24,000 nt of DNA from Nocardioides sp. NBC_00368 (GTDB lineage: Bacteria; Actinomycetota; Actinomycetes; Propionibacteriales; Nocardioidaceae): positions 2,922,635 through 2,946,634 of the forward strand of contig NZ_CP107970.1 of the NCBI RefSeq assembly GCF_036090055.1. The letters run 5' to 3'. The notes below the pieces were generated by a model, which was not told the origin of the DNA, searched no databases, and saw only the letters and a list, made by a program, of their open reading frames with translations. Below, piece after piece: positions 2 through 15,432 of this stretch (positions within the stretch are counted from its first letter, which is position 1; each line of letters starts with the position of its first letter). The position numbers and the translations under genes were made by a program.

Positions 2-1246
2 GCAGCGGTGGTGCGACCGCGCCACACCAGCCAGGTCCAGGCGACGGTACGGGCCTGTCATGACCTGTTGGTGCCCGTGGTGACCCGGGGCGCCGGCACC
101 GGGCTCACCGGTGCCGCGAACGCTGTCGACGGGGGCATCGTCCTGAGCACCGAGCACCTGGACGGCATCGTCGAGATCAACGCCACCGAGCGCTACGCCG
201 TGGTCGGCCCCGGGCTCACCAGCGATGCCCTCCGTGACGAGGCGGCCCGGCACCGGCTCTGGTACCCGCCGGACCCGGCGAGCGCCGAGTGGTCGACGAT
301 CGGCGGCAACGTCGCCACCAACGCCGGTGGGCTCTGTTGCGCGAAGTACGGCGTCACTCGTGACTACGTCATGGCCCTCGAGTTCGTCGACGGGCGGGGC
401 CGTCTCCACCGGGCCGGACGCCGCACGGCGAAGGGGGTCGTCGGGCTCGACATCGCCGGGCTCCTGGTCGGCTCCGAAGGCGCGCTCGGTGTCATCACGG
501 AGGCCACGTTGCGGTTGCGTCCGCTCTCGACGCAGGCCCGCACCGTGGTCGCCGGCTTTCCCTCCCTGCGTTCCGCCGGATGCGCCGTCGCAGCGGTACG
601 AGCCGCCGGGCTGACCCCGGCCGCGCTGGAGCTCCTGGACCATGCCACCCTGCGCGCGATCGACACCTGGCACAGGACGGGCGACCTGGATGCCGCCGTA
701 CTGATCGCCAGGATCGATACGTCAGCCGCAGCCGGCGAGGCCGAGGCCGCGGCGGTCCTCGCCCGGTTCGACGCCGCAGGCGCGACCTGGTCGACCCGGT
801 CGAGCGATCCGCGCGAGGCCGAGGAGCTGTTCGGGATCCGTCGTCTCGCCTATCCCTCCGTCGAACGGCTGGGCGACGTGCTGACGGAGGACATCTGCGT
901 CCCTGTCTCCACGCTCGCCGACGTCCTGGAGGCCGTTCGCCTCGTCGCCGAACGACGCGAGGTGACGATCGCGACGATCGCTCACGCGGGCGACGGCAAC
1001 CTGCACCCGCTGATCGTGACGGAGCGCGGCGATCACGCGGCCGCGGACCGGGCTCGGGCCGCCTTCGACGAGTTGATCGACCTCGCGCTCGCACACGGCG
1101 GGACGATCTCCGGCGAGCACGGCGTGGGGCGGCTCAAGCGTGGGGGCATGCGCCGTGAGCTCACTCCCGAGGTGGTTGCGCTCCAGGAGCAGATCAAGTC
1201 CGTGTTCGACCCACGCGGCATCCTGAATCCGGGCGCGATGCTCTGA
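2..1246 (+). CDS. FAD-linked oxidase, GlcD / D-lactate dehydrogenase-like (PCMH-type FAD-binding domain). The 5' end runs off the window.
   Basis: The frame is open to the window edge. The N-terminal motif 'VPVVTRGAGTGLTGAA' and the C-terminal motif 'GTISGEHGVGRLKR' are typical of GlcD-type FAD oxidases. About 40 N-terminal residues appear to be missing. Confidence 0.85.
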   Translation, partial: AAVVRPRHTSQVQATVRACHDLLVPVVTRGAGTGLTGAANAVDGGIVLSTEHLDGIVEINATERYAVVGPGLTSDALRDEAARHRLWYPPDPASAEWSTIGGNVATNAGGLCCAKYGVTRDYVMALEFVDGRGRLHRAGRRTAKGVVGLDIAGLLVGSEGALGVITEATLRLRPLSTQARTVVAGFPSLRSAGCAVAAVRAAGLTPAALELLDHATLRAIDTWHRTGDLDAAVLIARIDTSAAAGEAEAAAVLARFDAAGATWSTRSSDPREAEELFGIRRLAYPSVERLGDVLTEDICVPVSTLADVLEAVRLVAERREVTIATIAHAGDGNLHPLIVTERGDHAAADRARAAFDELIDLALAHGGTISGEHGVGRLKRGGMRRELTPEVVALQEQIKSVFDPRGILNPGAML

Positions 1247-1257
1247 GCCACCGGTGA

Positions 1258-2016
1258 TCAGCCGAAGGCGGTCCGCTCGAACAGCGCGTGCACCGGCTGG
1301 CCCGCGACCGTGAGGTCCACCTTGAGACGGAACCGTCCTGGCGAGGACGGCGTGCCGCTGAACGTCCCGTCCGGCCCCGTCTCGAACCGAACGAAGGCGC
1401 CGCTGGCGATGCTGACGGCGGCGACCTCCGCCTCGTCGTACTCGACCTGCGTTCCGGCCGAGGTCACCGACAGCATGAGCGTCGAGGGCTGGGCGAGCAG
1501 CAGATCACCCGACAGCGCCACGTCGTACGTGCCGACCTTCTGCACGTCCCCGTCGGCGACAGGAACCTCCGTCGGCCGGCGTTGCGCGGCTGGTGCGACC
1601 AGGTCGGTGCCGAGGACGAGGTCACCGACCTCGTCCTCACCGGTGTCGAAGGCCACCACGAGATGGCCCGGGCCGCCAAGGCCCTCCGGGAACACCGCCT
1701 CCCAGCCACCGTCCCGGGTCGGCCGTGCGGCGGCCCGCTCGAAGTAGCGCAGGTCGGCCGACCAGTACCACGAGGTGAGCTCGCCGACCTGTGCCTGCCC
1801 GCTCTCGAGCTCGAACCGGATCCGGTCGGCCCGTGCGCCCTCGGCCCGGACCTCGGAGAGCCGGTAACCCGCCTGATGGTCGACGAGACCATCACCCCAT
1901 CCGGCGACCCCGACCTCTGTCTCGCCGGTGTCGGGCGCGGTGTCTGAGGCACCACACGAGGTCGCTGCCCACAGTGACAGGGCCGCCAGCGCGGCAACCG
2001 GCAGCCGGTACGTCAT
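1258..2016 (-). CDS. Secreted lipoprotein of unknown function
   Basis: Signal peptide plus lipobox 'LSLWAATS-C'. The ATG overlaps the stop of the upstream IclR gene (ATGA), so the two are probably co-transcribed. I recognise no family. Confidence 0.6.
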   Translation of the reverse strand: MTYRLPVAALAALSLWAATSCGASDTAPDTGETEVGVAGWGDGLVDHQAGYRLSEVRAEGARADRIRFELESGQAQVGELTSWYWSADLRYFERAAARPTRDGGWEAVFPEGLGGPGHLVVAFDTGEDEVGDLVLGTDLVAPAAQRRPTEVPVADGDVQKVGTYDVALSGDLLLAQPSTLMLSVTSAGTQVEYDEAEVAAVSIASGAFVRFETGPDGTFSGTPSSPGRFRLKVDLTVAGQPVHALFERTAFG

Positions 2017-2894
2017 GCCCTGGCTCGCTCGTACACCATGGCCGTGAGCGGGTCGAGCTCGACGTACATCCGGGTCGCGTCGCGGGCTGCCCGCCTGACC
2101 GCCAGCTCCAGCTGCTCACGCTCGTCCAGGAAACGACGCGACGAGACGGAAACGCCCAGACCCGCGATCACCCGTCCGGCGCTGTCACGCACCGGGGCCG
2201 CCACGCAGGAGACGCCCAGCTCGTACTCGTCCACATCGGTCGCGAACCCCGCCTCTCGCATCCGCAGCACCTCGCGACGCAGCCGGTCGGGGGTGTCGAG
2301 GGTGTGATCGGTGAACCGCCGCAGTCGCGGCTCCCGCAGGTAGTCGGGCCAGCGATCGAAGCCGATCGAGGCCAGCATGACCTTGCCGAGGGCGAGGGCG
2401 TGCGCACCACCGCGGTAACCCGCCGAGATGTCACGCAGCTCCGCCGCGCCCCGGCGTCCTCGGGTGTCCGCGATCTCCAGATCGCCCTGCTTCCACCAGC
2501 CGAGGTAGGCCCGCGCGCGGGTCTCGTCGCGCAGATCCTGCAGCACCGCCGCGAGTCGCTCCGGCTGCGTCCGGTTGGCGACGTAGCCGCGGTACAGAGC
2601 GGCGATCTGCGGACCGAGGGTGTACAGACCCGACGTCGTCGGCGAATGCTCGATCATCCCCACGTCCGTCAGCGTCTGCAGCGCGTAGTAGGTGGTCGAC
2701 AGGCTCTGCTCGAGGCGACGGGCCAACACCTTGGCCGACACCCCCATCGGATTCTCGGAGATGATCGCGAGCGTATTGGCGATGTGGATCGCGGAGTTGA
2801 GGACTCTCTTCTGCGCCGGAATCTGTCCCGGGATCTGGGTGGTGCTCTGTGCAGGAATGCCTTCGACTGCGTCCAGGCTGGTTGTTTCCATCAT
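2013..2894 (-). CDS. IclR-family transcriptional regulator
   Basis: N-terminal winged HTH ('VSAKVLARRLEQSLSTTYYALQTLTDVGMIE') and a C-terminal IclR effector domain ('GVSCVAAPVRDSAGRVIAGLGVS'). Confidence 0.85.
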   Translation of the reverse strand: MMETTSLDAVEGIPAQSTTQIPGQIPAQKRVLNSAIHIANTLAIISENPMGVSAKVLARRLEQSLSTTYYALQTLTDVGMIEHSPTTSGLYTLGPQIAALYRGYVANRTQPERLAAVLQDLRDETRARAYLGWWKQGDLEIADTRGRRGAAELRDISAGYRGGAHALALGKVMLASIGFDRWPDYLREPRLRRFTDHTLDTPDRLRREVLRMREAGFATDVDEYELGVSCVAAPVRDSAGRVIAGLGVSVSSRRFLDEREQLELAVRRAARDATRMYVELDPLTAMVYERARA

Positions 2895-3007: not shown

Positions 3008-4786
3008 ATGCCCAGTGCCATGCCGAGCTGGTCCGACGTGCTGACGCACTCCCTCGAACGGCTCAAGGAACGAGCATCGACCGACCCCGATGCCGGGGTC
3101 CGCGACGGGATCCTCGCCTCCTGGCGTCGCTCCTACGACAGCCAGGCGCTCGGCGACCGTCTCGACCTGCCCTACGACGACAACCTCAACCTCTCGACCA
3201 GGCTGGTCCGCGCCGCCCGCCCCGTCATCGAGAAGGTCCAGAACGATATCGACGGCAGCCCGCTGACGCTCATCCTCGGCGACAGCACCGGCAAGGTGCT
3301 GCTGCGCCACTCCGGCGAGCCCTGCCTCGAGGGACAGCTCGACCGCGCGCTGCTCGCTCCGGGGTTCAGCTACGCCGAGAAGTACGCCGGCACCAACGGC
3401 ATCGGCACCGCTCTCGAGGACAGGTCGACCGCCCTCGTGCGAGGTGCCGAGCACTTCAACGAGCAGCTCCAGGTGTTCGCCTGCGTCGGCGTTCCCGTGC
3501 GCGACCCCATCACCCGCCGCCAGCTCGGCGTCCTGGACATCACCACCTGGGCGGACCGTGCGCATCCCGCGCTCACGGCGTTGGTCCGACAGGCCGGCGC
3601 CTCGATCGAGGACAGTCTGCTCACCATGTCGAGCCGAGGTGCTCGGTCGCTGCTGGAGGAGTATCTGCGCAGCAGCCGGGCCGCCGAGGACCGCATCATC
3701 GCCGTCAGCGACGAGGCGTTCATCGGATCCGCCACCGCGGCCACCCGCATCGGCGGACTGGGGCGACCCGAGCTGTGGGCGCTGACTGTGGACGCGCTCG
3801 GCAGCTCCGACCGCGCCGAGATCTCCCTCATGTCCGGCACCGAGTACGCCACCACCCTGACCGTGCGTGCCCTCCGCTCGCCCTACGGCCGACTCGACGG
3901 CGCGATCGTCGAGATCCCTTCCTCCGCTCCGGCGCCGCCGATCCAGCAGTCGAGCCCGGCCCAGCCCCGCGGAGCCCACCAGCTCAGCCCGCTGGTCCTC
4001 GGCCCGATGGCCATGGTCGGCCGCATGGCGGCCGCCCGCCTGCCGGTGTGTCTCGTCGGCGAGCCCGGCACCGGCAAGCGCACCCTCATCCAGGACATCG
4101 CGACGCGCGAGTTCCCGGGGCGTACGGTCGTCGTCATCGACTGCGGTGACGACGACATCGAGGCCAAGCTCGGCTCGGTCGGCGAGCATCTCGCCGATGG
4201 TCGTCCCGTCATCGTCCGCGACGCCGACGGACTGGCGTCGGGACGTCTCGCGGAGCTGGTCAGCAGCATGGATCTACCCTCGGCCAGCGGCTGGCTCACC
4301 TTCACCACGCGCAGGCATCACAAGAGCGCCGAGGGATCCGAGGAGGCCGAGGGCGACCTGGCCGCCGCCGGCATCCCGATGATCGCCCTTCCCCCGCTGA
4401 GGGCACGCGTCCAGGACCTACGCGTCCTGCTGCCCGACATGGTTCGCCGGCTGAGCCGCGGACGTGTCACCTCGGTCTCCCCCGAGCTGCTCACCCGCCT
4501 GATCCGCGAACCGTGGCCGGGGAACCTCGCCGAGGTCGTCGAGCTGGTCACCACCATGATCCCCTCGGCGACCGATTCCGTCCTGCGCGAGCAGCACCTG
4601 CCGGCAGACTTCGGCAGCGGGCTGCGGTATCGGCTCACCCCGCTGGAATGGATGACCCGGGACGCCATCGTGGAGTCGCTGCGCGCCTGCGACTGGGACA
4701 AGGCGCGCGCCGCCGAGGCGCTCGGCATGTCCCGGGCCTCGATCTACCGCAAGATCAAGGCCTACAACATCGAGCCCGGCGCCTGA
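3008..4786 (+). CDS. AcoR/MimR-type transcriptional activator (GAF sensor, degenerate AAA+ module, C-terminal Fis-type HTH)
   Basis: AcoR-type GAF motifs ('YAEKYAGTNGIGTALE', 'GAEHFNEQLQVFACVGVPVRDP..GVLDI'). Walker A 'GEPGTGKR'. Motifs 'LPPLRARVQDL' and 'WPGNLAEV'. C-terminal HTH 'KARAAEALGMSRASIYRKIKAY'. No GAFTGA motif is visible. Confidence 0.85.
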   Translation: MPSAMPSWSDVLTHSLERLKERASTDPDAGVRDGILASWRRSYDSQALGDRLDLPYDDNLNLSTRLVRAARPVIEKVQNDIDGSPLTLILGDSTGKVLLRHSGEPCLEGQLDRALLAPGFSYAEKYAGTNGIGTALEDRSTALVRGAEHFNEQLQVFACVGVPVRDPITRRQLGVLDITTWADRAHPALTALVRQAGASIEDSLLTMSSRGARSLLEEYLRSSRAAEDRIIAVSDEAFIGSATAATRIGGLGRPELWALTVDALGSSDRAEISLMSGTEYATTLTVRALRSPYGRLDGAIVEIPSSAPAPPIQQSSPAQPRGAHQLSPLVLGPMAMVGRMAAARLPVCLVGEPGTGKRTLIQDIATREFPGRTVVVIDCGDDDIEAKLGSVGEHLADGRPVIVRDADGLASGRLAELVSSMDLPSASGWLTFTTRRHHKSAEGSEEAEGDLAAAGIPMIALPPLRARVQDLRVLLPDMVRRLSRGRVTSVSPELLTRLIREPWPGNLAEVVELVTTMIPSATDSVLREQHLPADFGSGLRYRLTPLEWMTRDAIVESLRACDWDKARAAEALGMSRASIYRKIKAYNIEPGA

Positions 4787-4788
4787 CC

Positions 4789-4935: not shown

Positions 4936-4938
4936 TTC

Positions 4939-6246
4939 TCACAGTCCCATCAGGAGAACGAGACCTGTCGAGGTCAGACCGACCATCAACAGGAGGTACG
5001 GCAGCTGCCCCACGGCAACCGATCGCGGACGGAGCTCCTCGAGCGAGCGGTCGTGAGCCGCCACGACGCCGACGACGTGTCCACAGACGACCGCGGCGAG
5101 CTGAACGACGGCGATCGTCCGGGGTGAGACGACCAGGTAGTCGATCGACGACTGCGCCGAGCCGAAGAGGTCCCATCCCCGCCCGAACGGATCGGAGGCC
5201 AGGATCGCGCCGACCTGACCCTGGAAGACCGCGAACGAGAAGTAGTGGGCCACGGTGTAACCGACGATGATGGGCACCAAGGTGTGCGCGAAGGCCCGTG
5301 ACGTCCCGTCGGCATACCTCGAGAAGGCATCGGTGGCCCGCATCGCGAGCTGGTAGGCCCCGGCGACGAGCAGGACGGCGGCGACCAGGCCGAGGGTGCC
5401 GGTGATCAGATAGCCGGGTCCGACGAGGTCGCGGGTCAGGTCGCCCCAGAACGAGGTCCGGGTCACCCCGTCGAAGGCCGTCGACCCGAGCAGCGTGCAG
5501 AGCACGGCGAGCTGCCCCGGCGGGACCGGCATGGCGGCGAGACCGGCCAGCGGGTGGCGAAGCACCGCCTCGCCCTCCGCCGAGCGCCCCCACGGCGCCA
5601 GCCGTCCGATGGTCGCCGAATAGACCTCCAGGCCGTCGGCGGCGTCGAACCACCGCGGACCGGCCACCGCACCGCCGATCCCGTGCACGAGGACGTACGC
5701 GGTCACGAACCCGGCCACCACCCGCGGCTCGTCGGAGTGGTCGAAGACGAGCTCCAGCCACAGGAACACGCCCAGCGAGACGACGGCCGGCCATCGCCCC
5801 GCACCCGCCGGAAGCCCGGCCTGTCGTAGGCGGGACGGCACGAACCGGCTCAGCAACCGTGCCAGTGCCCGCACCGGGTTGAGGAACCGCCAGATCGGCC
5901 CCAGGAGAAGCGAGCACGGCACCAGACCGACCCACACCCACACGTAGAGCCAGGTGGGAGCCGGGTTCGTCGCCACGCTGGCCGGACCGAACCAGGCGAC
6001 CGCGAGGAACACCACGGTCCCGGCCAGCGCGACCGCCTGTGCGAGCCGTGAGGCCCGCTCCCCCACCGCGACCTGTACCCACCGCGGGAGCGCGACCCCG
6101 TCCTCGGTCGCGAACCTGCTCGAGCGCCACAGCAGGCCGAGCGCGAGAAAGGAGAACAGCAGGACCCCCACCGCGACGTACAGGGCGACCCAGACCGGGA
6201 TCGGAAGATCCGAGCGGCCACCCAGCCCGTGTGTCAGGATCATCAC
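4939..6246 (-). CDS. Polytopic integral membrane protein (about 10-12 TM helices) of unknown function, CuMMO-cluster associated
   Basis: Strongly hydrophobic 435-aa ORF with high GC3. The start (GTG 6246 or ATG 6243) overlaps the stop of the lipoprotein gene. It has the N-terminal motif 'THGLGGRSDLPIP' and several intramembrane His residues ('VLVHGIGG', 'YTVAHYF', 'VCGHVVGVVAAHD'). I recognise no family. Confidence 0.75.
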   Translation of the reverse strand: MMILTHGLGGRSDLPIPVWVALYVAVGVLLFSFLALGLLWRSSRFATEDGVALPRWVQVAVGERASRLAQAVALAGTVVFLAVAWFGPASVATNPAPTWLYVWVWVGLVPCSLLLGPIWRFLNPVRALARLLSRFVPSRLRQAGLPAGAGRWPAVVSLGVFLWLELVFDHSDEPRVVAGFVTAYVLVHGIGGAVAGPRWFDAADGLEVYSATIGRLAPWGRSAEGEAVLRHPLAGLAAMPVPPGQLAVLCTLLGSTAFDGVTRTSFWGDLTRDLVGPGYLITGTLGLVAAVLLVAGAYQLAMRATDAFSRYADGTSRAFAHTLVPIIVGYTVAHYFSFAVFQGQVGAILASDPFGRGWDLFGSAQSSIDYLVVSPRTIAVVQLAAVVCGHVVGVVAAHDRSLEELRPRSVAVGQLPYLLLMVGLTSTGLVLLMGL

Positions 6247-6695
6247 TTCACCTCGAGCTCGACGAGCAGCGCACCCGCTCCCTCCAGCTCCACCTCGAAA
6301 CGGCCCGGGATGTCGGCGGTGAAGGTGAGCGCGCCCTCCTGACCGGCCACGAGATCGACGTGCGCGTCGTAGCCGTGCACATGCACCTCGTCCGCGACGT
6401 CGCTGGTGACGGCGAGCGTCACCGACTCGCCGAGAGCGACGCGCTCGACGTGGGCCGGCGGGGAGAGCTTCCCGGCCACGATCTCGATCCGGATGACATC
6501 ACCCGTCGGCCGCGAGCTCGCCGTCGGGGCATCCGGCGGCGAGGGCGTGGTAGTCCCCGAGGGCTCCGCGGTCTGAGTCGAACCGTGTCCGGCGTGGTCC
6601 GCCTCCGCCGCGGTGGAGGTCTCCGCTCCGCATCCGCTGAGAGCCGAGGCGGCGAGGAGCGTCGCGACGGCAAGGGTGAGGCGTGCGCTGATCAT
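6243..6695 (-). CDS. Cupredoxin-like (EfeO-Cup / cupredoxin_1-like) lipoprotein with a His-rich linker
   Basis: Lipobox 'ALSG-C'. A Pro/Thr/Ser-rich linker contains 'ADHAGHGS'. A C-terminal beta-sandwich-like domain of about 85 aa reads 'IRIEIVAGKLSPP..V.LAVTSDVADEVHVHGYDAHVDL..G..TFTADIPGRFEVELE'. ATGA overlap with the upstream gene. Confidence 0.65.
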   Translation of the reverse strand: MISARLTLAVATLLAASALSGCGAETSTAAEADHAGHGSTQTAEPSGTTTPSPPDAPTASSRPTGDVIRIEIVAGKLSPPAHVERVALGESVTLAVTSDVADEVHVHGYDAHVDLVAGQEGALTFTADIPGRFEVELEGAGALLVELEVK

Positions 6696-7288
6696 GAGTG
6701 GTGGTTCCTTCCGAGACGGCGTTCATTGGCCACCAGACGGCTGCTGATGACGAGGGCGAGGACGAGACCGTGCACGAGGTGGATCCCGACCATCCACGGC
6801 CAGCCGATCAGGTTGCTCAGGCTCGAGGCCTCCGGTAGCGCGCCCACCACCGTCCCGACGACCTGGAGGCAGACCAGATAGAAGAAGCACATGAGGATGA
6901 CGCCGTGCAGCGCGGCGACGACGTACAGGGCACGTCCGGTGACCCGGTGGTTGCGCGTGCCGAGCGAGAAGATCGCTCCGCTCACGCCACCGAGGACCAC
7001 ACAGATCCCCAGTCCGCCGACGAACTCCTGCTGGAAGAAGGGTGCTGCCTCGCCGGCCGCCGTCGCGGCTTGCGACACCTCGAGGGCACCCGGCGACAGG
7101 ATCGAGACGATCGCGTAGAAGGGAGTCGCCGCACCGACTCCCTGGACCGCGCCGGCCAGGGCGAGCAGCGCGATGATGACCAGGGCCGACAAACTGCCGG
7201 CGACCGCTCCGCGCTCGATCGCGGCATCGAACGCTCGCCAGCCCGTCGGCGACTCATCCACCGCAGGGTGGCTTCTCATGCCGGTCAC
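6692..7288 (-). CDS. Polytopic membrane protein (about 5-6 TM helices) of unknown function
   Basis: Hydrophobic 198-aa ORF. The GTG start overlaps the stop of the upstream small ORF (GTGA); an alternative ATG lies at 7279. The stop overlaps the lipoprotein ATG. Confidence 0.7.
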   Translation of the reverse strand: MTGMRSHPAVDESPTGWRAFDAAIERGAVAGSLSALVIIALLALAGAVQGVGAATPFYAIVSILSPGALEVSQAATAAGEAAPFFQQEFVGGLGICVVLGGVSGAIFSLGTRNHRVTGRALYVVAALHGVILMCFFYLVCLQVVGTVVGALPEASSLSNLIGWPWMVGIHLVHGLVLALVISSRLVANERRLGRNHHS

Positions 7289-7590
7289 TTCCCGTCCGCC
7301 TGGTCTGCGGGCACGGTCTCCCGGGTCCGGGTGGGCTCCTCGGCATCTCGCTTGAGGAGCTCTTCGAGCTCGAAGTACTTACCGCTGAAGAGCAGTCGCG
7401 CACCCGTCGGCCGCTCATCGCGGTAGCCGGACTGGTAGCGCCGCTTCGACGTGCCCGACATGTCGATCGAGAGCATCAGCACGAAGATGCCGATCAACAG
7501 CCCTCCGAGGATGACCGGGCCGAGCCCGATCAGCATGTCCATGGAGCTCGTGCCGCCCCCGTGCATCGGCAGAATTTTCGGGATGGTCAT
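7285..7590 (-). CDS. Small single-pass membrane protein (101 aa) with a Met/His-rich extracytoplasmic N-terminus; first gene after pmoB
   Basis: An AGGAG sequence lies 8 nt upstream of the ATG at 7590. The track's GTG at 7599 abuts that RBS and is unlikely to be the start. The sequence is 'MTIPKILPMHGGGTSSMDM', then the TM helix 'LIGLGPVILGGLLIGIFVLMLSI', then a K/R-rich tail, which predicts an N-out topology. Confidence 0.7.
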   Translation of the reverse strand: MTIPKILPMHGGGTSSMDMLIGLGPVILGGLLIGIFVLMLSIDMSGTSKRRYQSGYRDERPTGARLLFSGKYFELEELLKRDAEEPTRTRETVPADQADGK

Positions 7591-7618
7591 GGTGTGCACT
7601 CCTGGTTCAAGGGTGGAA

Positions 7619-7654
7619 ACCCGGTGGTGCCGAGGGAGAACGGCACCACCGGGT
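7619..7654 (-). terminator. Perfect 14-bp-stem / 8-nt-loop hairpin between pmoB and the downstream genes; candidate attenuator or mRNA-stabilising / processing element
   Basis: ACCCGGTGGTGCCG (7619-7632) and CGGCACCACCGGGT (7641-7654) are exact reverse complements. On the transcribed strand the stem is followed only by 'TTCCACCCTT', so there is no strong U-tract. Confidence 0.6.
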
Positions 7655-7666
7655 GAACGTGTTCCG

Positions 7667-8887
7667 TCAGGCCATGGCCGACGGAGTGACGAAGCTCTGG
7701 ATGGTCACGAAGTTCTCGTGGCCGGCCTCGTCCTGGAGGCGCAGCACGCCGGTGAGCTGCATGCGCGACTCGCCGACCGGCATGAGCCGCTCCTTGGCCC
7801 ACACCTCGTCCGTGATGCTCATCGTCAGCTCGCGCGTCTCGCCGGGGGCGATCGGCGTGGCCGGCGAGATCTGGACGGACCGCCCCTCACTCCCCGCCTC
7901 GGCCACCGGGAAGGTGAGCGTGCTCGTCATGAACGACTCCACCGACGCCGGCGAGGTTCCCGTGTTCGTCACCTTCACCTTGGCCGTCACGGTGTCCGTC
8001 GCCGGGTCGAACGCCCCATCGGACGCATCCGCGGTGACGAACTTGGCATCGACCACCGCATCCTCCGGGGCGAAGTGGAGCACCTGCTGCGGCATCTTGT
8101 CCGGGTAGGCCTGCGCCTGCCACACCATGCCTCCCACCACCAGGGCGATGGTCGCGCCCATCATGATGTTCATGACGCGGTGGTCCTTCTTGGTGATCAG
8201 CCCGTACGCCCCACCGTCGGTGTTGAGCGGGATCTGGCTCGTCACCGGCAGACGTGTGACGGTCGGCTTCGGGACGATCCAGTAGAGGAGCCAGGCGAAC
8301 CCGATCACCAGCCAGATGACGTTCCAGAAGGTGACGCCACCCATGCCGATGTTCTCGAGGTCGGCCGTCTTCCCGCTCAGCAGCTTGACCTCGTTGGTGA
8401 AGCCGCCGGCGGACTCCGTCACGTCGACGTACTGCCCCGGGCCGATGAGCGAGCCCGCTCCATGGATGCCGAAGATGGGATGCACGTGCCAGTGACCGAC
8501 CCGGCGCCCCTGGAGCACCATCTTGAACTGGTAGACGCCGCCCTTCTCGATCTCGATCGCCATCGGCGCGGGCGCGCCGTTGACGGTGCGCTCCTTGATG
8601 ACGACGGTCGGGCCCGGGGCGATCACACCGATGAAGCCGAGCTTCGGCTCCGCGAGCTGCTCAGGGTAGGTCTCGAGGATCTTCGCGGTGCCCGTGATGG
8701 TGAGCTCCTCACCCTGGGCGACCTTCTCGGCCGAGTACTTCACGTCCCAGAAGGCGACCGTGCCCATCCGGAGGAAGGCCTCCTGGGCCGTCTCTCCGTG
8801 AGCCGACGCCGGTGCCGGCGGCAGCGCGAGCACGACGGCGACGGCAGCGGCCAACACCGCTCCGATGTACTTCAGTTTGCTACGCAT
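7667..8887 (-). CDS. pmoB: Copper membrane monooxygenase subunit B (PmoB/AmoB/BmoB/HmoB family)
   Basis: A signal peptide ending 'ASA' is followed by 'HGETAQEAFLRMGTVAFWD' (compare methanotroph PmoB 'HGEKSQAAFMRMRT'). The 'GHWHVHP' HxH motif, two central TM helices and a C-terminal cupredoxin-like domain are present. RBS GAGGAG. Confidence 0.95.
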   Translation of the reverse strand: MRSKLKYIGAVLAAAVAVVLALPPAPASAHGETAQEAFLRMGTVAFWDVKYSAEKVAQGEELTITGTAKILETYPEQLAEPKLGFIGVIAPGPTVVIKERTVNGAPAPMAIEIEKGGVYQFKMVLQGRRVGHWHVHPIFGIHGAGSLIGPGQYVDVTESAGGFTNEVKLLSGKTADLENIGMGGVTFWNVIWLVIGFAWLLYWIVPKPTVTRLPVTSQIPLNTDGGAYGLITKKDHRVMNIMMGATIALVVGGMVWQAQAYPDKMPQQVLHFAPEDAVVDAKFVTADASDGAFDPATDTVTAKVKVTNTGTSPASVESFMTSTLTFPVAEAGSEGRSVQISPATPIAPGETRELTMSITDEVWAKERLMPVGESRMQLTGVLRLQDEAGHENFVTIQSFVTPSAMA

Positions 8888-8899
8888 GTCGTACTCCTC

Positions 8900-9685
8900 T
8901 CAGAACCGCTTGATGAAGCGGCCGATGGGCCAGATGGCAAGTCCGCGACCGATGGCCTGTCCGACCCAGTAGCCGGCGACGGCGAGAGTGGCCCCGAACG
9001 CCAGCGAGACGTACTGGGTCTCACCGAGGAAGGTGCGGAGCGACCCGTGCTCGATCATGCGGAGGTACTCGGGTGTCTGACCACGGACGTACTCGATGCC
9101 CTGGACGTCGGCGACGGTGACGTGCAGGCCCATCCAGTCGATCGGCTGCAGGTACGGCGCGAGCACCGTGTAGTTCGTGAACCAGAGGATCAGCGCGAAG
9201 CCGAACGCTCCGATCAGCGAGGTGAGCACGAAGCTCTTCGTCTTCAGCAGGACCCAGTCCAGCCAGATGGCGGCAGCCAGGATCATCACCGGCCAGACGA
9301 ACGCCAGCGGGAACCCGCCGAACATGTCCCAGTTGAAGATGCGGCCGATCCAGGACGCGATCGTCATGCTGATGGCGGTGTAGACGGCACCCGTGGGCAT
9401 GCGCCAGGCGAGCCACTGGATGTACTGCAGGGCCGAGGGGATGATGATGACGGCGAACGGGGTCACCATCGGCCACCACTGACGGTCCTTCCAGTCCGTC
9501 CAGAAGTCCCAGTCTCCTGCGAACAGGAGCTTGGTGATGTCGGCTGCGGCGGCGACCACGAAGGCGGCCGTGACCCAGAAGACGATGTCCCACTTACGGT
9601 CGATGAAGGTGTAACGGCGGTTGAGCAGCTTCCGCAGTGCTTGCGTACGCTCCTCGGACTCCGGCGCCAAAGCTGTGGCACTCAT
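8900..9685 (-). CDS. pmoA: Copper membrane monooxygenase subunit A (PmoA/AmoA family)
   Basis: The sequence 'DWDFWTDWKDRQWWPMVTP' and the overall polytopic pattern match PmoA/AmoA. I chose the start at ATG 9685 (AAGGAG RBS upstream) rather than the track's 9916, whose 77-aa extension is Arg/Pro-rich junk. Confidence 0.93.
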   Translation of the reverse strand: MSATALAPESEERTQALRKLLNRRYTFIDRKWDIVFWVTAAFVVAAAADITKLLFAGDWDFWTDWKDRQWWPMVTPFAVIIIPSALQYIQWLAWRMPTGAVYTAISMTIASWIGRIFNWDMFGGFPLAFVWPVMILAAAIWLDWVLLKTKSFVLTSLIGAFGFALILWFTNYTVLAPYLQPIDWMGLHVTVADVQGIEYVRGQTPEYLRMIEHGSLRTFLGETQYVSLAFGATLAVAGYWVGQAIGRGLAIWPIGRFIKRF

Positions 9686-9723
9686 GAGGGCTCCTTGGTT
9701 TGGGGATGTGGACGGTCCACTGG

Positions 9724-10587
9724 TCAGGCGATCGCGGGATCCGAGGTCGCTACGGTTTGTCGTTCCTCTTCGATCTCGTCCTCGATCTGGAGCAGCCGAC
9801 CCAGGGACTCTGCCCAGAGGGCGAAGATGCCGGACGCCAGCCAGCCGTAGGTGACGAAGGGCCAGTGGAACGGAGCGGCGAAGATCTCTTCGGTGATCCA
9901 GAGGCTGTGGCCCCACTCGTTCATCGCGACCTGCATCATCTCGGTGACGGAGGCGGAGATGAGGAGGAAGAAGGACCAGGGGAAGCCCTTGTCAGGCGAG
10001 TAGACCTTCGGCAGGCGGGTACGCCCGTAGAGGTAGGTGCCCACCGTCATCGTGATGCCGAGCGGGAAGGCCCAGAAGAACATGACGATGTGGCTGGGGG
10101 TGAGGGCGGTGTCGCGAACAGCGGTCTGGTGCCAGACACCGTCCTGGTTCGGGAAGAAGCTCGCCATGAAGTAGAGCGTCAGCGAGGTGGCGCCGATCAG
10201 GCCCCAGAAGACCGCGATGCGACGTACTTCCTCGGCCTTGCTGATCGGCCGGGCCTCTGCCTTGGCGGCGAGGTTCTGGCCCGACTTGATCAGCCATCCC
10301 CACCAGACGAGCGTCACGATCGTGACGACGACCAGCTCGCCGAGGAACAGGTTGAACCAGTACGTCCGGAAGCCATCGCTGGCCGCATCCAGGCCGTACT
10401 CCTTGTACCAGGCGAACTTCTGCTGGTAGATCCGCAGCCCGATGAACGATCCGGCGAGCAGGAAGCTCCCGATGAACATCCAGCGCCAGCCGCCGTTCCA
10501 GTCGATCGGGCCGCGGCCCTTGGGGAACTCGCCGGACGAGTCCCCGCGAGTGTCCTCCCGGGATTCCGGGGTGATGGTTGTGGACAT
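9724..10587 (-). CDS. pmoC: Copper membrane monooxygenase subunit C (PmoC/AmoC family)
   Basis: 'NQDGVWHQ...PSH' gives D149/H153/H166. 'NEWGHSLW...FHWPF' gives N223/H227/H241. Spacing is the same as the two PmoC metal sites. RBS GGAAGGA. Confidence 0.95.
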   Translation of the reverse strand: MSTTITPESREDTRGDSSGEFPKGRGPIDWNGGWRWMFIGSFLLAGSFIGLRIYQQKFAWYKEYGLDAASDGFRTYWFNLFLGELVVVTIVTLVWWGWLIKSGQNLAAKAEARPISKAEEVRRIAVFWGLIGATSLTLYFMASFFPNQDGVWHQTAVRDTALTPSHIVMFFWAFPLGITMTVGTYLYGRTRLPKVYSPDKGFPWSFFLLISASVTEMMQVAMNEWGHSLWITEEIFAAPFHWPFVTYGWLASGIFALWAESLGRLLQIEDEIEEERQTVATSDPAIA

Positions 10588-10623
10588 GGTTTTTCCTTCC
10601 GTTTGTCGTGCGGAGGTCCGGGG

Positions 10624-11661
10624 TCAGGGGATGAGGACGGCCCGACCGCGCACCCGTCCGTGGTGCAGGTCGTCGAGCGCGACGTTGGCGTCGTCGAGGG
10701 GGTAGATCTGGGAGTGGAGGGTGACCTTCTTGGCCGCGGCCAGCTCCATCAGCTCGGAGAGCTCGGTGTAGTTGCCGACGAGGCTGCCGACGACGCTGAT
10801 CTCGCTGAAGATGACCTGCAGGGCCGGCACGTTGACGTTGCCGCCGTATCCGACGACGTAGTAGGTCCCGCCCTGGCGCAGCATGTTCGGGCCCTGGTCG
10901 GTGGTGCCGTGCTCGGCGACGAAGTCGATGACGGCCTCGACCCCGTCTCCTCCGGCGAGGTCCTTGACCGCCTCGACGACGTCGCCCTCGCCTGCATCGA
11001 CGGTGATGTCCGCACCGATCTGCTTCGCGAGCTCGAGGGCGTCGGGGTTTGTGTCGACGACCACGATCTCGGTGGGGCTGAGCGCCTTGAGCGACTGGAT
11101 CGCGATGTGGCCCAGGCCGCCGGCTCCGATCACCACCGTCTTGGTGCCGGCCTGGAGCCGGGGTACGGCCTTCTTGACGGCCCGGTACGCGGTGATGCCG
11201 GCATCCGCGAGCGGCGCGACGTCGACCGGCTGGAGGCTCGGATCGAGCTTGATGCAGGCGCGCTCGTTCGTGAGCATGTACTCGGCGTACCCGCCGTCCA
11301 TCGCGAGCCCCGGGAATCCGGCCGTCTCGCAGTACATGTCCTCTCCGCGGCGGCACCCCGCGCAGACGCCACAGGTGATGTGCGGGTGGAGGATCACCGT
11401 GTCGCCGGGCGCCACCGTGGTGACCGCCGAGCCGACCTCGTCGACCCAGCCCGCGTTCTCGTGGCCGAGGATGAACGGCAGGAGCGTGCCCTCGGTGTCG
11501 AGCGTGTCCTTCCAGACCTTCTCGATCACATGGAGGTCCGTTCGGCACACGCCCGCGGCGCCCACCTTGATCACCACGTCGTGCGGCCCGGTGATCCGGG
11601 GCTTGGGCACGTCCTCGAGGACCAGCTTCGAGTCATAGGTGTAGAGCCGGGCGGCCTTCAT
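10624..11661 (-). CDS. Zn-dependent (medium-chain) alcohol dehydrogenase
   Basis: Catalytic Zn ligands 'GVCRTDLH' and 'GHENAG'. Structural Zn motif 'CGVCAGCRRGEDMYC'. Rossmann motif 'GAGGLG'. Start at ATG 11661 with a GAAGGAG RBS, overlapping the DUF59 gene stop (ATGA). Confidence 0.9.
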   Translation of the reverse strand: MKAARLYTYDSKLVLEDVPKPRITGPHDVVIKVGAAGVCRTDLHVIEKVWKDTLDTEGTLLPFILGHENAGWVDEVGSAVTTVAPGDTVILHPHITCGVCAGCRRGEDMYCETAGFPGLAMDGGYAEYMLTNERACIKLDPSLQPVDVAPLADAGITAYRAVKKAVPRLQAGTKTVVIGAGGLGHIAIQSLKALSPTEIVVVDTNPDALELAKQIGADITVDAGEGDVVEAVKDLAGGDGVEAVIDFVAEHGTTDQGPNMLRQGGTYYVVGYGGNVNVPALQVIFSEISVVGSLVGNYTELSELMELAAAKKVTLHSQIYPLDDANVALDDLHHGRVRGRAVLIP

Positions 11662-12365
11662 GCCACTTCTCCTTCGGTGACGACGGTGAGTTCTGAGGGG
11701 TAGCGCTCCGCGAGCAGCGCCTTGCAGAGATGACCGTTGCCCTCGAAGGACACGGCCATCACCCGAGCAGACCGCCGGTGGGCCCGGACCTGCTCCGGGC
11801 CCACCGGACGGCCATCGGCGGCGATGAGGAAGGGGTCGTCGTGGCGGCAACCGACCCCGAGCTCCTCTCGCGTGGTCAGGTACTTCCCGAGACCGGGAAG
11901 CTCGAGGCGGGCGACGTCTCCCAGCACGAGGTCGACCAGACTCTCGGCGTCGACACCGATCTCCTCCAGCTGGCGACAGACCTGCTCCTGGCGGATCAGC
12001 AGGGTCTTGCGCCGGAAGTGGTCGCGCAGGTCCTCGAGGTCGCCCTCCGCCTCGCTGGGGAACGCGGTCATGAACCCGCCCCTGCTCTGCACGCCGGACT
12101 GGATCCGCTCCGACTCGAAGTGGTCCTCGACGGAGACGGTGACCGCACCCTTTCCGACGACGCGCTCCGCCGCCTGACGTACGTCGTCCACCATCAGCCA
12201 GGTGAAGTTCGGCGCACAGAAGTACGTCGGCAGCTGCATGACGATGCGCACCCGACCGCCTTCCTCGGTGACGGAGCGGATGAACCCCATGTCAGTCACC
12301 GAGCGGTCGACCTCGGGGTCGTGCACCTCATCCAGCGCCGCGAGGACGTCGGACGCGGTCGACAT
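11658..12365 (-). CDS. DUF59/MIP18-domain protein (Fe-S / metal-cluster-assembly-like N-terminal domain plus an uncharacterised C-terminal domain)
   Basis: The N-terminus 'DVLAALDEVHDPEVDRSVTDMGFIRSV...LPTYFCAPNF' resembles the DUF59 fold. The ATG at 12365 overlaps the amidohydrolase stop (ATGA). The track's longer ORF (to 12941) is an out-of-context extension through the amidohydrolase gene. Confidence 0.75.
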   Translation of the reverse strand: MSTASDVLAALDEVHDPEVDRSVTDMGFIRSVTEEGGRVRIVMQLPTYFCAPNFTWLMVDDVRQAAERVVGKGAVTVSVEDHFESERIQSGVQSRGGFMTAFPSEAEGDLEDLRDHFRRKTLLIRQEQVCRQLEEIGVDAESLVDLVLGDVARLELPGLGKYLTTREELGVGCRHDDPFLIAADGRPVGPEQVRAHRRSARVMAVSFEGNGHLCKALLAERYPSELTVVTEGEVA

Positions 12366-13378
12366 CAGGCCACGACCTCGGCGAGGACGTCCACCTCTGC
12401 GACTCCGACGACGTCCTCCGGGACCTCGATGTCGTACAGGCGCGCGGCGTTGAGGCCGAGGACCTTGGCCTTCTGGACGTCGGTGATGGCGTCGTACTCG
12501 CTGCCCTCGGAGAACTGGAAGTCGAGGAACTTCTCGACCAGCCAGCGCGGGGTCCAGATCGCGTAGTCGCTGCCGAAGCAGATCTTGTCCTCGCCGAGCC
12601 AGTAGAGGAGCTCGCCCATGATCTGCTCGAAGTAGCGGGGCTTGGCATGGACGAACGGCATCGCGACCGCCATGCCGGCGTAGACGTTGTGCTCCTGGGT
12701 GCCGATCCAGCAGAAGTCCTCGAGCCTGGGCAGGCCGATGTGCTCGACGATGAAGTTGAGGTCCTGGAAATCGGTGGCCACGTGGTCGACGTCGTGGACA
12801 TCGAAGGCATCCCGGTCGAGCGGCCAGACCGTGGGGCCCTTGTGGATGTGGATGTTCTTGATGCCGAGCTCCTGGGACTTCTCCAGGTAGCGGTAGGCCA
12901 TCGGATCGGTGAGCGAGTAGCCACGGGAGTCGCCCTGCCACTCCGCGGTGTAGAGCTTGACGCCCTGGATCTTCCGCTCGGAAGCCTCCTTCTCGAGCAG
13001 CTCGAGACCTTCCTCACCGAAGCGTGGGTCCCACGAGGTGTTGAGGATGAACCTGCCCGGGTTCTCCTCGACCAGCTCGAGCGCCTCCTTCTCGCGGCGG
13101 AAGCCGGTCCTATAGAACGCGCCGAGGACCGTCGGGTTGAAGATCGCGACGTCGACGCCGCCGTTGTCGAGGACGTCCTTGACGACGTCCTCCTTCTCGA
13201 TCTTCGCGAAGCGCTCCTTCGACCACTTCTCCTCCTCGGGGGAGAGCCCGTTGTGGTAGTCGAAGAAGCACTGGGTCCAGCCCTTGCCGTAGTCGTTCAG
13301 GCAGTTCTCGTCCGAGCCGTCCCAGATGTGGATGTGGCCGTCGACGATGAAGTAGTTCTTGCCGTCCCTGGTGATCAT
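12365..13378 (-). CDS. Amidohydrolase-2 family (TIM-barrel metal-dependent hydrolase)
   Basis: 'FIVDGHIHIWD' HxH metal motif near the N-terminus, plus '..IVEHIG..' and 'FGSDY' motifs. ATG 13378 is preceded by an AGGAGGA RBS. It is the first gene of the cluster. Confidence 0.85.
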   Translation of the reverse strand: MITRDGKNYFIVDGHIHIWDGSDENCLNDYGKGWTQCFFDYHNGLSPEEEKWSKERFAKIEKEDVVKDVLDNGGVDVAIFNPTVLGAFYRTGFRREKEALELVEENPGRFILNTSWDPRFGEEGLELLEKEASERKIQGVKLYTAEWQGDSRGYSLTDPMAYRYLEKSQELGIKNIHIHKGPTVWPLDRDAFDVHDVDHVATDFQDLNFIVEHIGLPRLEDFCWIGTQEHNVYAGMAVAMPFVHAKPRYFEQIMGELLYWLGEDKICFGSDYAIWTPRWLVEKFLDFQFSEGSEYDAITDVQKAKVLGLNAARLYDIEVPEDVVGVAEVDVLAEVVA

Positions 13379-13767
13379 GCGTGTCCTCCTGATGCGAGTT
13401 CGGCGTGATGGCGATGCCGACCGTGTCGGCAGCGGTCTGCCGACTCGGGATCGCTTCAGTGAAGGGCCCGTCCGCACCTGTGTCGAGCGTCACATCAGCA
13501 TCGATGGCCGCTGTTCCACACCCGTCGGAAACCCGGTGGAATACCGGCCATGAGCAGGGCCGGCGCGGTTTCCTGGCCGCGATGCGGACGCCGACTCCGC
13601 AGGTATCAGCCGTTGGATGGGCGAAATACTCGACGCTTTCCGCAGGGGGTGATGGCGGCTCGGGATTCCGACGCCGAACGCTGTCCAGGCGGTGTGACGG
13701 GAGTCACCATTCCGAGACAACGGGCGGCACGAGCCGCACGTTCACCGGAAGAAATCGAGGTCGCACG

Positions 13768-14058
13768 ATGACGTTTGAGACCTTGCTGGTCATGGCGGTC
13801 GGTATCGCGGCGCTGACCGGTCTGCGGATCGTTCTGGCCCTCATCGGAAAGGGGCATGCCGCCGACCACTCCGCGGTTCCGCGCCCCCGGGAGGGCACAG
13901 CGGCCGGCTCGAGGTGCCGCGCGGTACGCGGGACGGGACGCAACCGGAACCTGCTCTACTTCGTGCCGAGAACGGAACCACAGCTGCCGGACGTGCAGAC
14001 CCGGCAGGCGGCCGAGCCAAGGGCCGCGACCTCTACAGCGTCCGGCGGGCGCCGTTGA
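13768..14058 (+). CDS. Candidate small membrane protein (96 aa); weak call
   Basis: An ATG is preceded by GAGG 6 nt upstream. The N-terminal TM helix is 'MTFETLLVMAVGIAALTGLRIVLALIG'. GC3 is only moderately high, the C-terminal half is Arg/Gly-rich, and the 3' end overlaps the convergent gene by 26 nt. Confidence 0.25.
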   Translation: MTFETLLVMAVGIAALTGLRIVLALIGKGHAADHSAVPRPREGTAAGSRCRAVRGTGRNRNLLYFVPRTEPQLPDVQTRQAAEPRAATSTASGGRR

Positions 14059-14491
14059 CCTTCTGCCGGAGCCAGGCGGGCACGCGCTCCTCGTCACGCG
14101 GGAACGTCTCGAGGTCGAGCGCGTACAGCCCCGGGTGGGCCGGCCAGCGCCAGACCGGCTCGTCGTCGTAGTTGAAGACGACCTTGGTCGAGTTCTTCTC
14201 CCCCTCGCCCTCCCCGCTGGCGATGGTCCAGCGGGCGGAGAACCAGGCGCCCCGGCCCGGCTCGTACATCACCCGCCGCAGCTCGTCGGTCAGCGCGAGG
14301 ATGGTCTCAGGCGGCCGGGCGTAGGCGAAGCTGCCGTCCGGTCGGTGCACGTCGATGCGTCCGGTGAAGAACATGGACAGGTTGCGATGGTTGAAGACCA
14401 ACGTGGACCAGTCGCCCTCGACCTCGTCGGCGAGGTGGAGGGCGATCTCATCGATGAGCTGTTCCTGTCTGACCACAGGAGGAACGGTCAT
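14033..14491 (-). CDS. Hypothetical cytoplasmic protein (152 aa)
   Basis: ATG at 14491 with a GGAGG about 7 nt upstream. The sequence 'GDWSTLVFNHRNLSMFFTGRIDVHRPDGS...ELRRVMYEPGRGAWFSARWTI' vaguely resembles small immunity-type proteins, but I cannot assign a family. Confidence 0.55.
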   Translation of the reverse strand: MTVPPVVRQEQLIDEIALHLADEVEGDWSTLVFNHRNLSMFFTGRIDVHRPDGSFAYARPPETILALTDELRRVMYEPGRGAWFSARWTIASGEGEGEKNSTKVVFNYDDEPVWRWPAHPGLYALDLETFPRDEERVPAWLRQKVNGARRTL

Positions 14492-14617
14492 GACCGCCAA
14501 CCTACTACCGCTGTCGACCTCAATCCGGGACCATCGTCCCGGGGTCCGGCACACTGAGGTTTTTCCCACCCGCGGAGCACGGACATATCGAGCAGCGTCC
14601 GCGGGTACCACCTCAGC

Positions 14618-14980
14618 ATGCAGCCGACGTCCACCTCCGATGCGCCGACCGGGCCCGCGGTCGCCCAGGGCGTGTTCAACATCGTCGGAGGCCTGTGGCC
14701 GCTGCTGAGCCTGCGCAGCTTCGAGTGGGTGTTCGGGCCGAAACGGGAGCGCTGGCTCGAGTACACCGTGGCCGGTCTGCTCTGCGTCAACGGCGCCACG
14801 CAGATCGCCGCCGCCCGAGCCGGGGAGCCCCTCGCCGCCCGCCGGATCGGACAGGGCACCGCGCTCACCCTGCTCGCGATCGACCTCGTGTACGTCCCGA
14901 AGGGGCGGATCCGCTGGACCTACCTGATCGACGCCGCGATGGAGGCCGGCTGGCTGGCGGCCTGGCGAGGAGCCCGCTGA
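14618..14980 (+). CDS. Small membrane protein (120 aa), unknown function
   Basis: Three to four hydrophobic segments. The stop overlaps the ATG of the next ORF (TGATG). Confidence 0.55.
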   Translation: MQPTSTSDAPTGPAVAQGVFNIVGGLWPLLSLRSFEWVFGPKRERWLEYTVAGLLCVNGATQIAAARAGEPLAARRIGQGTALTLLAIDLVYVPKGRIRWTYLIDAAMEAGWLAAWRGAR

Positions 14981-15432
14981 TGGTGACGAACGGAGTCGTC
15001 CTCGTCTGGCTCTTCACGATGGCCGCCGGAGCCTTCATGTTCGGCACCGCGAGCCGCTTCGGCGCTCCGCCCGCAGCCATCCGCAACTCGCGACTGCCGA
15101 TCCCGGCGCTGCTCTCCCACCCCACCCTGACGGGAGGCGCCTTCGCGGCCTGGCTGGGTTTCATCATCACCGAGGAGCGCGCCTGGGCCTGGGTCGCCGT
15201 CGGCATGCTCGCCGCCGGTATCTGCCTCGGCGCCCTTCTGTTCGTACGCACCATGAAGCCCGAGCACGTCGTCCTGGCCGAGGAGACCGACGAGGTCGTC
15301 GGCGATCCCGTCCGCGTGCCGTACGACGTCGCCGAGCACGAGATCCCGCGCCCGGTGATCTACGGCCACGGGATCTTCGCCGCCGTCACCTTCACTCTCG
15401 TCCTGCTGGTCGCGCTCGGCGTCGTCAGCTGA
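14980..15432 (+). CDS. Membrane protein (150 aa), unknown function
   Basis: The ATG at 14980 is translationally coupled to the previous ORF. It has four hydrophobic helices. The track's longer form starting at 14695 overlaps the previous gene in another frame. Confidence 0.55.
   Translation: MVTNGVVLVWLFTMAAGAFMFGTASRFGAPPAAIRNSRLPIPALLSHPTLTGGAFAAWLGFIITEERAWAWVAVGMLAAGICLGALLFVRTMKPEHVVLAEETDEVVGDPVRVPYDVAEHEIPRPVIYGHGIFAAVTFTLVLLVALGVVS

Follow-up and report, generated by a model that had tools for sequence, protein, structure and literature searches.

The propane and acetone monooxygenase clusters (prm and mim) of Gordonia TY5 and i37, Mycolicibacterium smegmatis and M. goodii carry, together with a soluble di-iron monooxygenase (SDIMO), genes for an amidohydrolase (AH), a DUF59-domain protein, an alcohol dehydrogenase (ADH) and a GroEL, the latter being the component required for heterologous expression (PMC6849523). 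In M. smegmatis these genes are MSMEG_1975 (amidohydrolase 2), 1976 (hypothetical), 1977 (ADH) and 1978 (GroL), followed by 1979 (ABM) (PMC5445863). The AH and DUF59 genes of such clusters have been without an assigned function since 2003 and are often pictured as hydroxylase accessories; literature searches on the function of AH and DUF59 and on the regulator MimR turned up descriptive mentions only. Here we analysed a 24,000-nt stretch of the genome of Nocardioides sp. NBC_00368 (contig NZ_CP107970.1, positions 2,922,635 to 2,946,634; G+C ~70%), hereafter the window, in which the same three genes (the trio) head an operon for a copper membrane monooxygenase (CuMMO). The initial annotation of this DNA had described the AH, DUF59, ADH and GroEL content of SDIMO clusters, and both the annotated loci and the two papers agree with it. 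What is new is that a known, functionally unassigned module has an uncharacterised CuMMO lineage as its partner. More broadly, the analysis shows the module to be autonomous, which opens an experimental path to what the two 'accessory' genes do.

The trio occupies 10624-13378 of the window on the minus strand, directly ahead of the gene for the C subunit, as had been noted. The first cistron, AH (12365..13378), has AGGAGG ahead of its ATG and encodes a 337-residue Amidohydro_2-family metalloprotein (PF04909, E=1e-44). The second (11658..12365) encodes a 235-residue protein in which the PF01883 (DUF59) match is confined to residues 6-79 (E=4.5e-14) and is followed by a helical C-terminal domain of ~150 residues. 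The third (10624..11661) encodes a Zn-dependent medium-chain ADH of 345 residues with ADH_N and ADH_zinc_N domains, whose top NCBIfam match is AdhP, under the AdhP cutoff. The genes overlap by 1 nt at the AH/DUF59 junction (TGATG, 12367..12363) and by 4 nt at the DUF59/ADH junction (ATGA, 11661..11658). These overlaps imply translational coupling at both junctions, although only the second is one of the two ATGA overlaps originally described. The CuMMO genes follow on the same strand: xmoC (9724..10587; PF04896, E=6.5e-51) starts 36 nt after the ADH stop, with GGAAGGA ahead of it, and is followed by xmoA (8900..9685; PF02461) and xmoB (7667..8887; PF04744, E=1e-86), the product of which has a signal peptide. 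We infer a ten-gene minus-strand operon consisting of AH, DUF59, ADH, xmoC, xmoA, xmoB and four small or membrane open reading frames (ORFs). The window proteins match those of Nocardioides luteus BAFB at 94-100% identity, and AH matches its counterpart in Nocardioidaceae bacterium Broad-1 at 97%.

Comparison with the prm/mim clusters (Gordonia TY-5 prmABCD-orf-orf-adh1-groEL; M. smegmatis MSMEG_1971-1979) showed that the trio families are orthologous and stand in the same order, that both arrangements include a MimR-family regulator, and that both adjoin a hydroxylase of small alkanes or ketones. In contrast, the hydroxylase of the window is a membrane copper enzyme rather than a soluble di-iron enzyme, the trio lies ahead of the hydroxylase genes instead of after them, GroEL/MimG and the ABM gene are missing, and the trio proteins are only 34-63% identical and fall into a separate clade. 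Identities to SDIMO-linked homologues were 57-63% for AH, 34-43% for DUF59 and 52-59% for ADH. No SDIMO subunit was matched anywhere in the 24 kb by tblastn with the Paracoccus SDIMO subunits, and the initial statement that no GroEL is encoded in the window held in a tblastn search (best E=0.12).

To place the trio in context, one genome per species was scanned with an AH alignment, the best 80 of at least 600 matches were kept and loci collected earlier were added; the resulting 88 distinct AH loci were then classed by tblastn with reference subunits, a locus being called stand-alone when no monooxygenase lay within ~10 kb. Stand-alone loci were the largest class (56/88) and none contained GroEL, whereas GroEL was found in 25 of the 26 SDIMO-linked loci and in none of the six linked to a CuMMO. 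(If the other Prauserella alba trio, which is SDIMO-linked, and a duplicate of the Lentzea locus are counted as well, there are 27 SDIMO-linked entries, 26 with GroEL, and seven CuMMO-linked ones.) GroEL thus belongs to the SDIMO hydroxylase and not to the trio. It is missing from the window because it accompanies SDIMOs only, and its absence is accounted for without anything unusual.

Of the 56 stand-alone loci, 38 have flanks of 7 kb or more on each side, and in 36 of these all three genes are present. Stand-alone copies occur in Streptomyces (including S. hygroscopicus), Arthrobacter, Geodermatophilus, Kineococcus and Conexibacter (including C. woesei) and, outside the Actinobacteria, in Thermomicrobium roseum, on two haloarchaeal plasmids and in Peribacillus. 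Their commonest neighbour is a divergent MimR-family gene; a regulator of this family adjoins 41 of the 56 stand-alone trios, 19 SDIMO loci and five CuMMO loci. The window shares with the stand-alone MimR plus AH-DUF59-ADH loci the protein families, invariant residues, gene order, tight spacing and regulator family. While these loci have no monooxygenase within ~10 kb, the window adds six to seven cistrons (xmoCAB and accessory ORFs). The copies in Streptomyces, Arthrobacter and Conexibacter provide tractable hosts for finding the role of the module.

Among SDIMO-linked loci, ~24 from actinobacteria contained an SDIMO, AH, DUF59, ADH and GroEL with a divergent MimR gene. On plasmid pAMI4 of Paracoccus aminophilus, plasmid p2 of Caballeronia zhejiangensis and a plasmid of Bradyrhizobium CB82, the annotated order is SDIMO alpha, reductase, beta and MmoB, then AH, an 'iron-sulfur cluster assembly protein' (DUF59) and GroEL, an ADH gene also lying nearby. 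Group-5-type SDIMO clusters with GroEL and without AH or DUF59 on the replicon were found in Azospirillum, Methylocella and Skermanella. In Mycobacterium AT1 only GroEL accompanies the monooxygenase, the trio being encoded at another place (PMC6849523); the AT1 trio is one of the stand-alone loci (L060).

Alignment of 96 AH homologues from all contexts, bacterial and archaeal, showed that D13, H15, H177, H179, D190, D196, D198, H213 and D271 are invariant (96/96) and that E212, H244 and D193 are nearly so. The conserved motif of strand beta-1 is D-x-H (D13-G-H15; residues 12-16 of the model), and residue 17 (window 13330..13328), which would be the second histidine of a classical HxH, is alanine in 53/96 homologues. 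The AlphaFold2 model of AH is a confident TIM barrel (pLDDT 90). Searches of the PDB with AH, as a single sequence and as a profile, gave no significant match, and Foldseek returned generic PF04909 folds. Of 90 sequences of the DUF59 protein, 89-90 keep C50 (the canonical DUF59 cysteine), H82 and C214. Taken at 50% identity, the two-domain family comprises 272 representatives (E<=1e-30), and its C-terminal helical domain had no fold match in the PDB. The ADH retains GHE and the structural-Zn cysteines. No signal peptide was seen in AH, DUF59 or ADH, and the trio proteins are predicted to be cytoplasmic. Active-site residues are identical across the SDIMO-linked, CuMMO-linked and stand-alone contexts. 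That the same constraint acts on these proteins beside an SDIMO, beside a CuMMO or with no monooxygenase nearby is easier to reconcile with an enzyme that has its own reaction than with a hydroxylase-specific assembly factor.

The DUF59 protein resembles the PaaD and SufT types in its N-terminal DUF59 fold and conserved cysteine, and PaaD too has a genetic tie to a di-iron oxygenase. It scores well below the equivalog cutoffs of these families (PaaD, 33 and 26 bits against 180 and 108; SufT-associated, 25 against 143) and, unlike them, has the additional conserved helical domain of ~150 residues, the invariant C214 and AH as a constant partner.

The initial annotation had described the trio as SDIMO-style and had proposed comparing it with its prm/mim counterparts. 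The label is apt in that the proteins belong to the same orthologous families, but the closest relatives are CuMMO-linked, SDIMO-linked copies are no closer than stand-alone ones and the stand-alone context is the commonest. In the trees the actinobacterial CuMMO-linked AH, DUF59 and ADH proteins were each monophyletic (bootstrap 98, 100 and 92). This clade lies as far from SDIMO-linked as from stand-alone copies (AH distance 0.57 versus 0.56), shows no clear sister group and is nested in no SDIMO-linked clade, so that a stand-alone donor is equally possible. With AH identities of 66-97% among Nocardioides, Lentzea and Carbonactinospora, the clade is old. An exchange of the module between di-iron and copper systems, the other possibility raised at first, is therefore not specifically supported. 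The AH and DUF59 proteins of Caldinitratiruptor and of a Dormibacteraeota metagenome-assembled genome (MAG) fall outside the actinobacterial CuMMO clade, beside non-actinobacterial stand-alone copies, so the coupling of module and CuMMO arose more than once.

The copper enzyme itself has the order xmoC, xmoA, xmoB with Pfam AmoC, AMO and Monooxygenase_B matches. All three subunits score under the NCBIfam AMO/pMMO equivalog cutoffs, so the enzyme belongs to neither of these canonical types. When aligned with solved pMMO chains, XmoB keeps the copper ligands (N-terminal HGE and the HxH of GHWHVH), and the XmoC metal ligands DGVWH...SH and NEWGH...FHW align with those of solved PmoC (D..H..H and N..H..H). 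The six-gene order AH, DUF59, ADH, xmoC, xmoA, xmoB recurs in N. luteus, Lentzea, Carbonactinospora thermoautotrophica, two Nocardioides-like MAGs, two long metagenome contigs and a further MAG, usually with IclR, MimR and the same downstream ORFs. Because the six genes recur in the same order, the arrangement is not due to chance.

XmoA of the window is 83% identical to that of Carbonactinospora, 77% to that of Lentzea and 70% to that of Caldinitratiruptor. More distant members of the lineage (XmoA 64-70% identical) carry the module in other arrangements. Caldinitratiruptor has the order MimR, IclR, DJ-1, AH, DUF59, ADH, xmoC, xmoA, an 87-residue ORF and xmoB; on a JGI contig the trio is divergent from MimR-xmoCAB; and in the Dormibacteraeota MAG, AH and DUF59 flank xmoCAB on opposite sides, the contig ending where ADH might lie. 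Two relatives at 62-63% XmoA identity are without the module. The lineage is abundant in soil, differs from both Hmo and pBMO and stands among genes that point to C3 alcohol and ketone metabolism. That the module heads a copper operon, recurs with this lineage in three phyla in varied arrangements and mostly occurs with no monooxygenase argues for a catalytic role of its own.

Taken together, these results favour a model in which the trio is an ancient, self-contained cytoplasmic module acting on small alcohols and ketones that was joined repeatedly to two unrelated hydroxylases, AH and DUF59 not being builders of metal centres; we give this a probability of roughly 0.6. What was read directly from the data is gene content, coupling, distribution, phylogeny and ligand conservation, and from these we infer a metabolic rather than a maturation role for AH and DUF59. 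Of the two readings offered at the outset, it is thus downstream metabolism, not di-iron cluster assembly, that is favoured, with GroEL tracking the SDIMO only.

In this model the core of the module would be an amidohydrolase-fold metalloprotein and its obligate partner, the DUF59-plus-helical-domain protein, with the Zn ADH as the usual companion and a small-molecule-sensing activator of the MimR/NtrC type as the usual control. The module would have been coupled to group-5/6 SDIMOs, which bring their own GroEL, and to one CuMMO lineage, which comes with extracytoplasmic copper-handling genes of its own and without GroEL. The membrane CuMMO would hydroxylate a C2-C4 alkane or ketone, the cytoplasmic ADH would interconvert alcohol and ketone or aldehyde, oxidising the alcohol product, and AH/DUF59, as a cytoplasmic metal-dependent pair, would act on a small oxygenated intermediate at the level of acetone, acetol or methylglyoxal. 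This level is hinted at by the MimR regulators, the DJ-1/PfpI neighbours, an aldehyde dehydrogenase (found 3' of the cluster in locus L091) and the precedent of a CuMMO acetone monooxygenase (PMC8630023). As the trio proteins have no signal peptides and XmoB is exported, the downstream lipoprotein and membrane protein of the operon would be better candidates for copper handling than the trio.

A more specific proposal is tentative and less likely than not to hold. It takes AH and DUF59 to be a two-protein metalloenzyme with a binuclear D-x-H/His-rich site, distributed from haloarchaea to Actinobacteria, which would supply the missing acetone/acetol (C3 ketone) step under MimR-type control. On this view the CuMMO would oxidise ketones or short alkanes and correspond, among copper enzymes, to MimABCD, and the cluster would be a Mim regulon in copper form that several phyla put together separately.

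Several points weigh against a self-contained metabolic module. The role of AH and DUF59 is argued from sequence and gene context, and the nearest solved AH folds, at 12-16% identity, are too distant for a substrate to be assigned. The trees were built by neighbour-joining from ~90 sequences and their deep nodes are poorly supported. The stand-alone class was judged on flanks of ~10 kb, so a monooxygenase may lie elsewhere in the genome, as in Mycobacterium AT1. DUF59 domains are otherwise linked to metal-cofactor maturation (SufT, CIAO2B, ApbC, PaaD), and in the proteobacterial SDIMO clusters AH and DUF59 sit between mmoB and groEL, with ADH elsewhere nearby, giving them the look of hydroxylase accessories.

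The last two points belong to the alternative that survives best, although we consider it unlikely, namely that AH and DUF59 act in trans in the maturation, metallation or repair of oxygenases (or of the ADH) encoded nearby or elsewhere in the genome. Their occurrence in the window would then answer a requirement of the CuMMO or of an unlinked SDIMO. The resemblance of the DUF59 fold to Fe-S and cofactor-maturation proteins, its invariant Cys/His/Cys set, the placing of the pair directly after mmoB and before groEL in proteobacteria and the separation of trio and SDIMO in Mycobacterium AT1 (PMC6849523) are all as such a role would predict. Against it, no monooxygenase lies within 10 kb of 56 of the 88 copies, those of haloarchaea and Thermomicrobium included; the ligand set of AH is of catalytic type and fully invariant; and SDIMO clusters with GroEL and without AH or DUF59 exist. 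In addition, the trio proteins are probably cytoplasmic, while the CuMMO copper sites face outward. Furuya's work of 2013 reportedly found MimG alone to be needed for heterologous activity, which we also count against maturation factors.

It is improbable that AH is instead an O2-activating dinuclear-metal oxygenase akin to the AROs AibH2, SfbO and PtmU3, with DUF59 as partner subunit or metallochaperone. The beta-1 D-x-H that is invariant in AH typifies the N-terminal part of AROs and is lacking in the PF04909 hydrolases and decarboxylases characterised so far (PMC13154177), the alanine at position 17 in most homologues fits the same pattern, and AibH and SfbO are among the Foldseek matches to AH. 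The ARO C-terminal motif D-x-P-H-x-[D/E] is absent from AH, however; the sequence after beta-8 is G-S-D271-Y-A-I-W-T-P (SDYAIW), with no P-H. Foldseek, moreover, does not separate AROs from LigJ, LigW and lactonases, all of which match at 12-16% identity, and no Rieske ferredoxin or reductase is associated with the stand-alone trios. AH has the N-terminal motif without the C-terminal one and was accordingly not assigned to the AROs.

Least probable of all is a recent capture of the trio by recombination from a prm/mim-type SDIMO cluster with loss of GroEL, as the shared AH-DUF59-ADH order and the MimR-family regulators of actinobacterial SDIMO clusters and of the window might suggest, since the CuMMO-linked proteins form their own clade across three genera at 66-97% AH identity, this clade is nested in no SDIMO-linked clade and is equally distant from SDIMO-linked and stand-alone copies, and both the gene order and the regulator are found with the stand-alone trios too.

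Four further ORFs of the operon, tightly packed with 4-nt overlaps and none with a Pfam match, lie 3' of xmoB on the minus strand. The first (7285..7599) encodes a small membrane protein of 104 residues with tblastn matches at the equivalent position in loci L013, L010, L090 and L091. The second (6692..7288; 198 residues), which has 4-nt overlaps on both sides, is conserved in seven CuMMO-linked loci, including those of Lentzea and Carbonactinospora. The third (6243..6695) encodes a lipoprotein-like protein of 150 residues, probably cupredoxin-like, that is conserved in CuMMO-linked loci and beside hmoCAB of Mycolicibacterium chubuense NBB4; its homologue in L091 has a weak Cupredoxin_1 match. 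The last cistron (4939..6246), paired with the lipoprotein gene, encodes a polytopic membrane protein of 435 residues that is 33-48% identical to homologues in L010, L090, L091, Lentzea and L097 and 39% identical to one near NBB4 hmoCAB. The lipoprotein and the 435-residue protein are probably copper-handling accessories.

The characterised actinobacterial CuMMOs for short hydrocarbons, NBB4 hmoCAB and the enzyme of Rhodococcus sp. ZPP, are likewise encoded by xmoCAB operons, and the pair of cupredoxin-like lipoprotein and 435-residue membrane protein occurs near NBB4 hmoCAB as well. The subunits are only 30-45% identical (XmoA, 42-45% to NBB4 and ZPP HmoA; XmoB, 30-33% to plasmid-borne HmoB). 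The NBB4 and ZPP clusters carry mdo (an NDMA-dependent methanol dehydrogenase), MoxR/VWA and an AMP-binding protein, which the window does not have, and are without AH, DUF59 and Zn-ADH.

A second comparison, made by gene description, is with the pmoCAB3 acetone monooxygenase cluster of Methylacidiphilum, in which a CuMMO is part of a 2-propanol/acetone/acetol pathway cluster rather than of methane or ammonia oxidation (PMC8630023). Its partners are a periplasmic GMC oxidoreductase and glyoxalases, not AH, DUF59 and ADH; the CuMMO contig L102 (XmoA 62% identical to the window) carries the same GMC-oxidoreductase type of partner. A weak lead comes from the text of a tree figure in the supplement of Khadka 2018, where the near-identical Broad-1 enzyme is listed directly before the Methylacidiphilum operon-3 sequences. 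A GMC oxidoreductase with a small subunit bearing a twin-arginine (TAT) signal is common to an Azospirillum SDIMO cluster (L104, 5419..6990) and to L102 (4264..5832), at 68% and 39% identity, so that a second downstream module is likewise shared by di-iron and copper hydroxylases. The Azospirillum and Methylocella SDIMO clusters and L102 have GMC and no AH, and none of the AH loci of the set had GMC within 10 kb, a pattern from which it was considered whether AH/DUF59 stands in, without being orthologous, for the GMC acetol/2-propanol oxidoreductase; this idea was rejected, as both occur together in the Bradyrhizobium CB82 and Ponticoccus clusters. In the non-actinobacterial loci L095, L096, L101 and L102 an additional ORF of 81-113 residues lies between xmoA and xmoB, which is absent from the window and other actinobacterial loci.

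Two regulatory genes lie beyond the end of the operon. The first (3008..4786, plus strand), convergent with the operon end, encodes a MimR-family activator with Pfam GAF, AAA_lid_14 and HTH_8 domains (GAF, AAA lid and Fis helix-turn-helix) and is 31% identical over 580 residues to a Lentzea regulator with MimR_N/MimR domains. Mycobacterial MimR is said, from work by Furuya in 2011, to be acetone-responsive. The second (2013..2894, minus strand) encodes an IclR-family regulator, assigned by Pfam, that is conserved alongside CuMMO-linked trios. A homologue was present in 14 further loci, among them each other CuMMO-linked locus with the region present (two of these being copies of one Lentzea contig), and one also adjoins the Thermomicrobium trio. 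Upstream of AH, ~650 nt (13379..14032) with no credible ORF presumably contain the promoter/operator; no sigma-70 consensus was seen in them, and a promoter and terminator consensus scan of 4600-14200 gave nothing above shuffles. Three ORFs without a Pfam match follow at 14033..15432, one of 192 residues on the minus strand, conserved in N. luteus only, and two of 120 and ~245 residues on the plus strand. At the other end, cut by the window start, an FAD-linked oxidase of the GlcD/D-lactate dehydrogenase type (8..1246, plus strand; FAD_binding_4 and FAD-oxidase_C) could suit a route from methylglyoxal via D-lactate to pyruvate, its link to the operon being hypothetical.

Other neighbours of the trio were observed in the wider set of loci. 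A gene for an ABM-family ('quinol monooxygenase') protein of ~109 residues, the counterpart of MSMEG_1979, lies 3' of the trio or of GroEL in 33 stand-alone and SDIMO-linked loci (for example L005 and L006; 19 stand-alone and 11 SDIMO-linked by the clustering count) and is absent from all CuMMO-linked loci. Prauserella alba (L036, 10001..20807) carries the trio twice, with ~3 kb between the two oppositely oriented copies; one is stand-alone and has a MimR-like gene, the other is SDIMO-linked with GroEL. In two Bacillota-type loci a DJ-1/PfpI gene lies beside AH/DUF59, the two genes sharing 49% identity: in Peribacillus (L092, 8862..9434), where no ADH match was found in the trio locus, and in Caldinitratiruptor (L095, 4508..5068).

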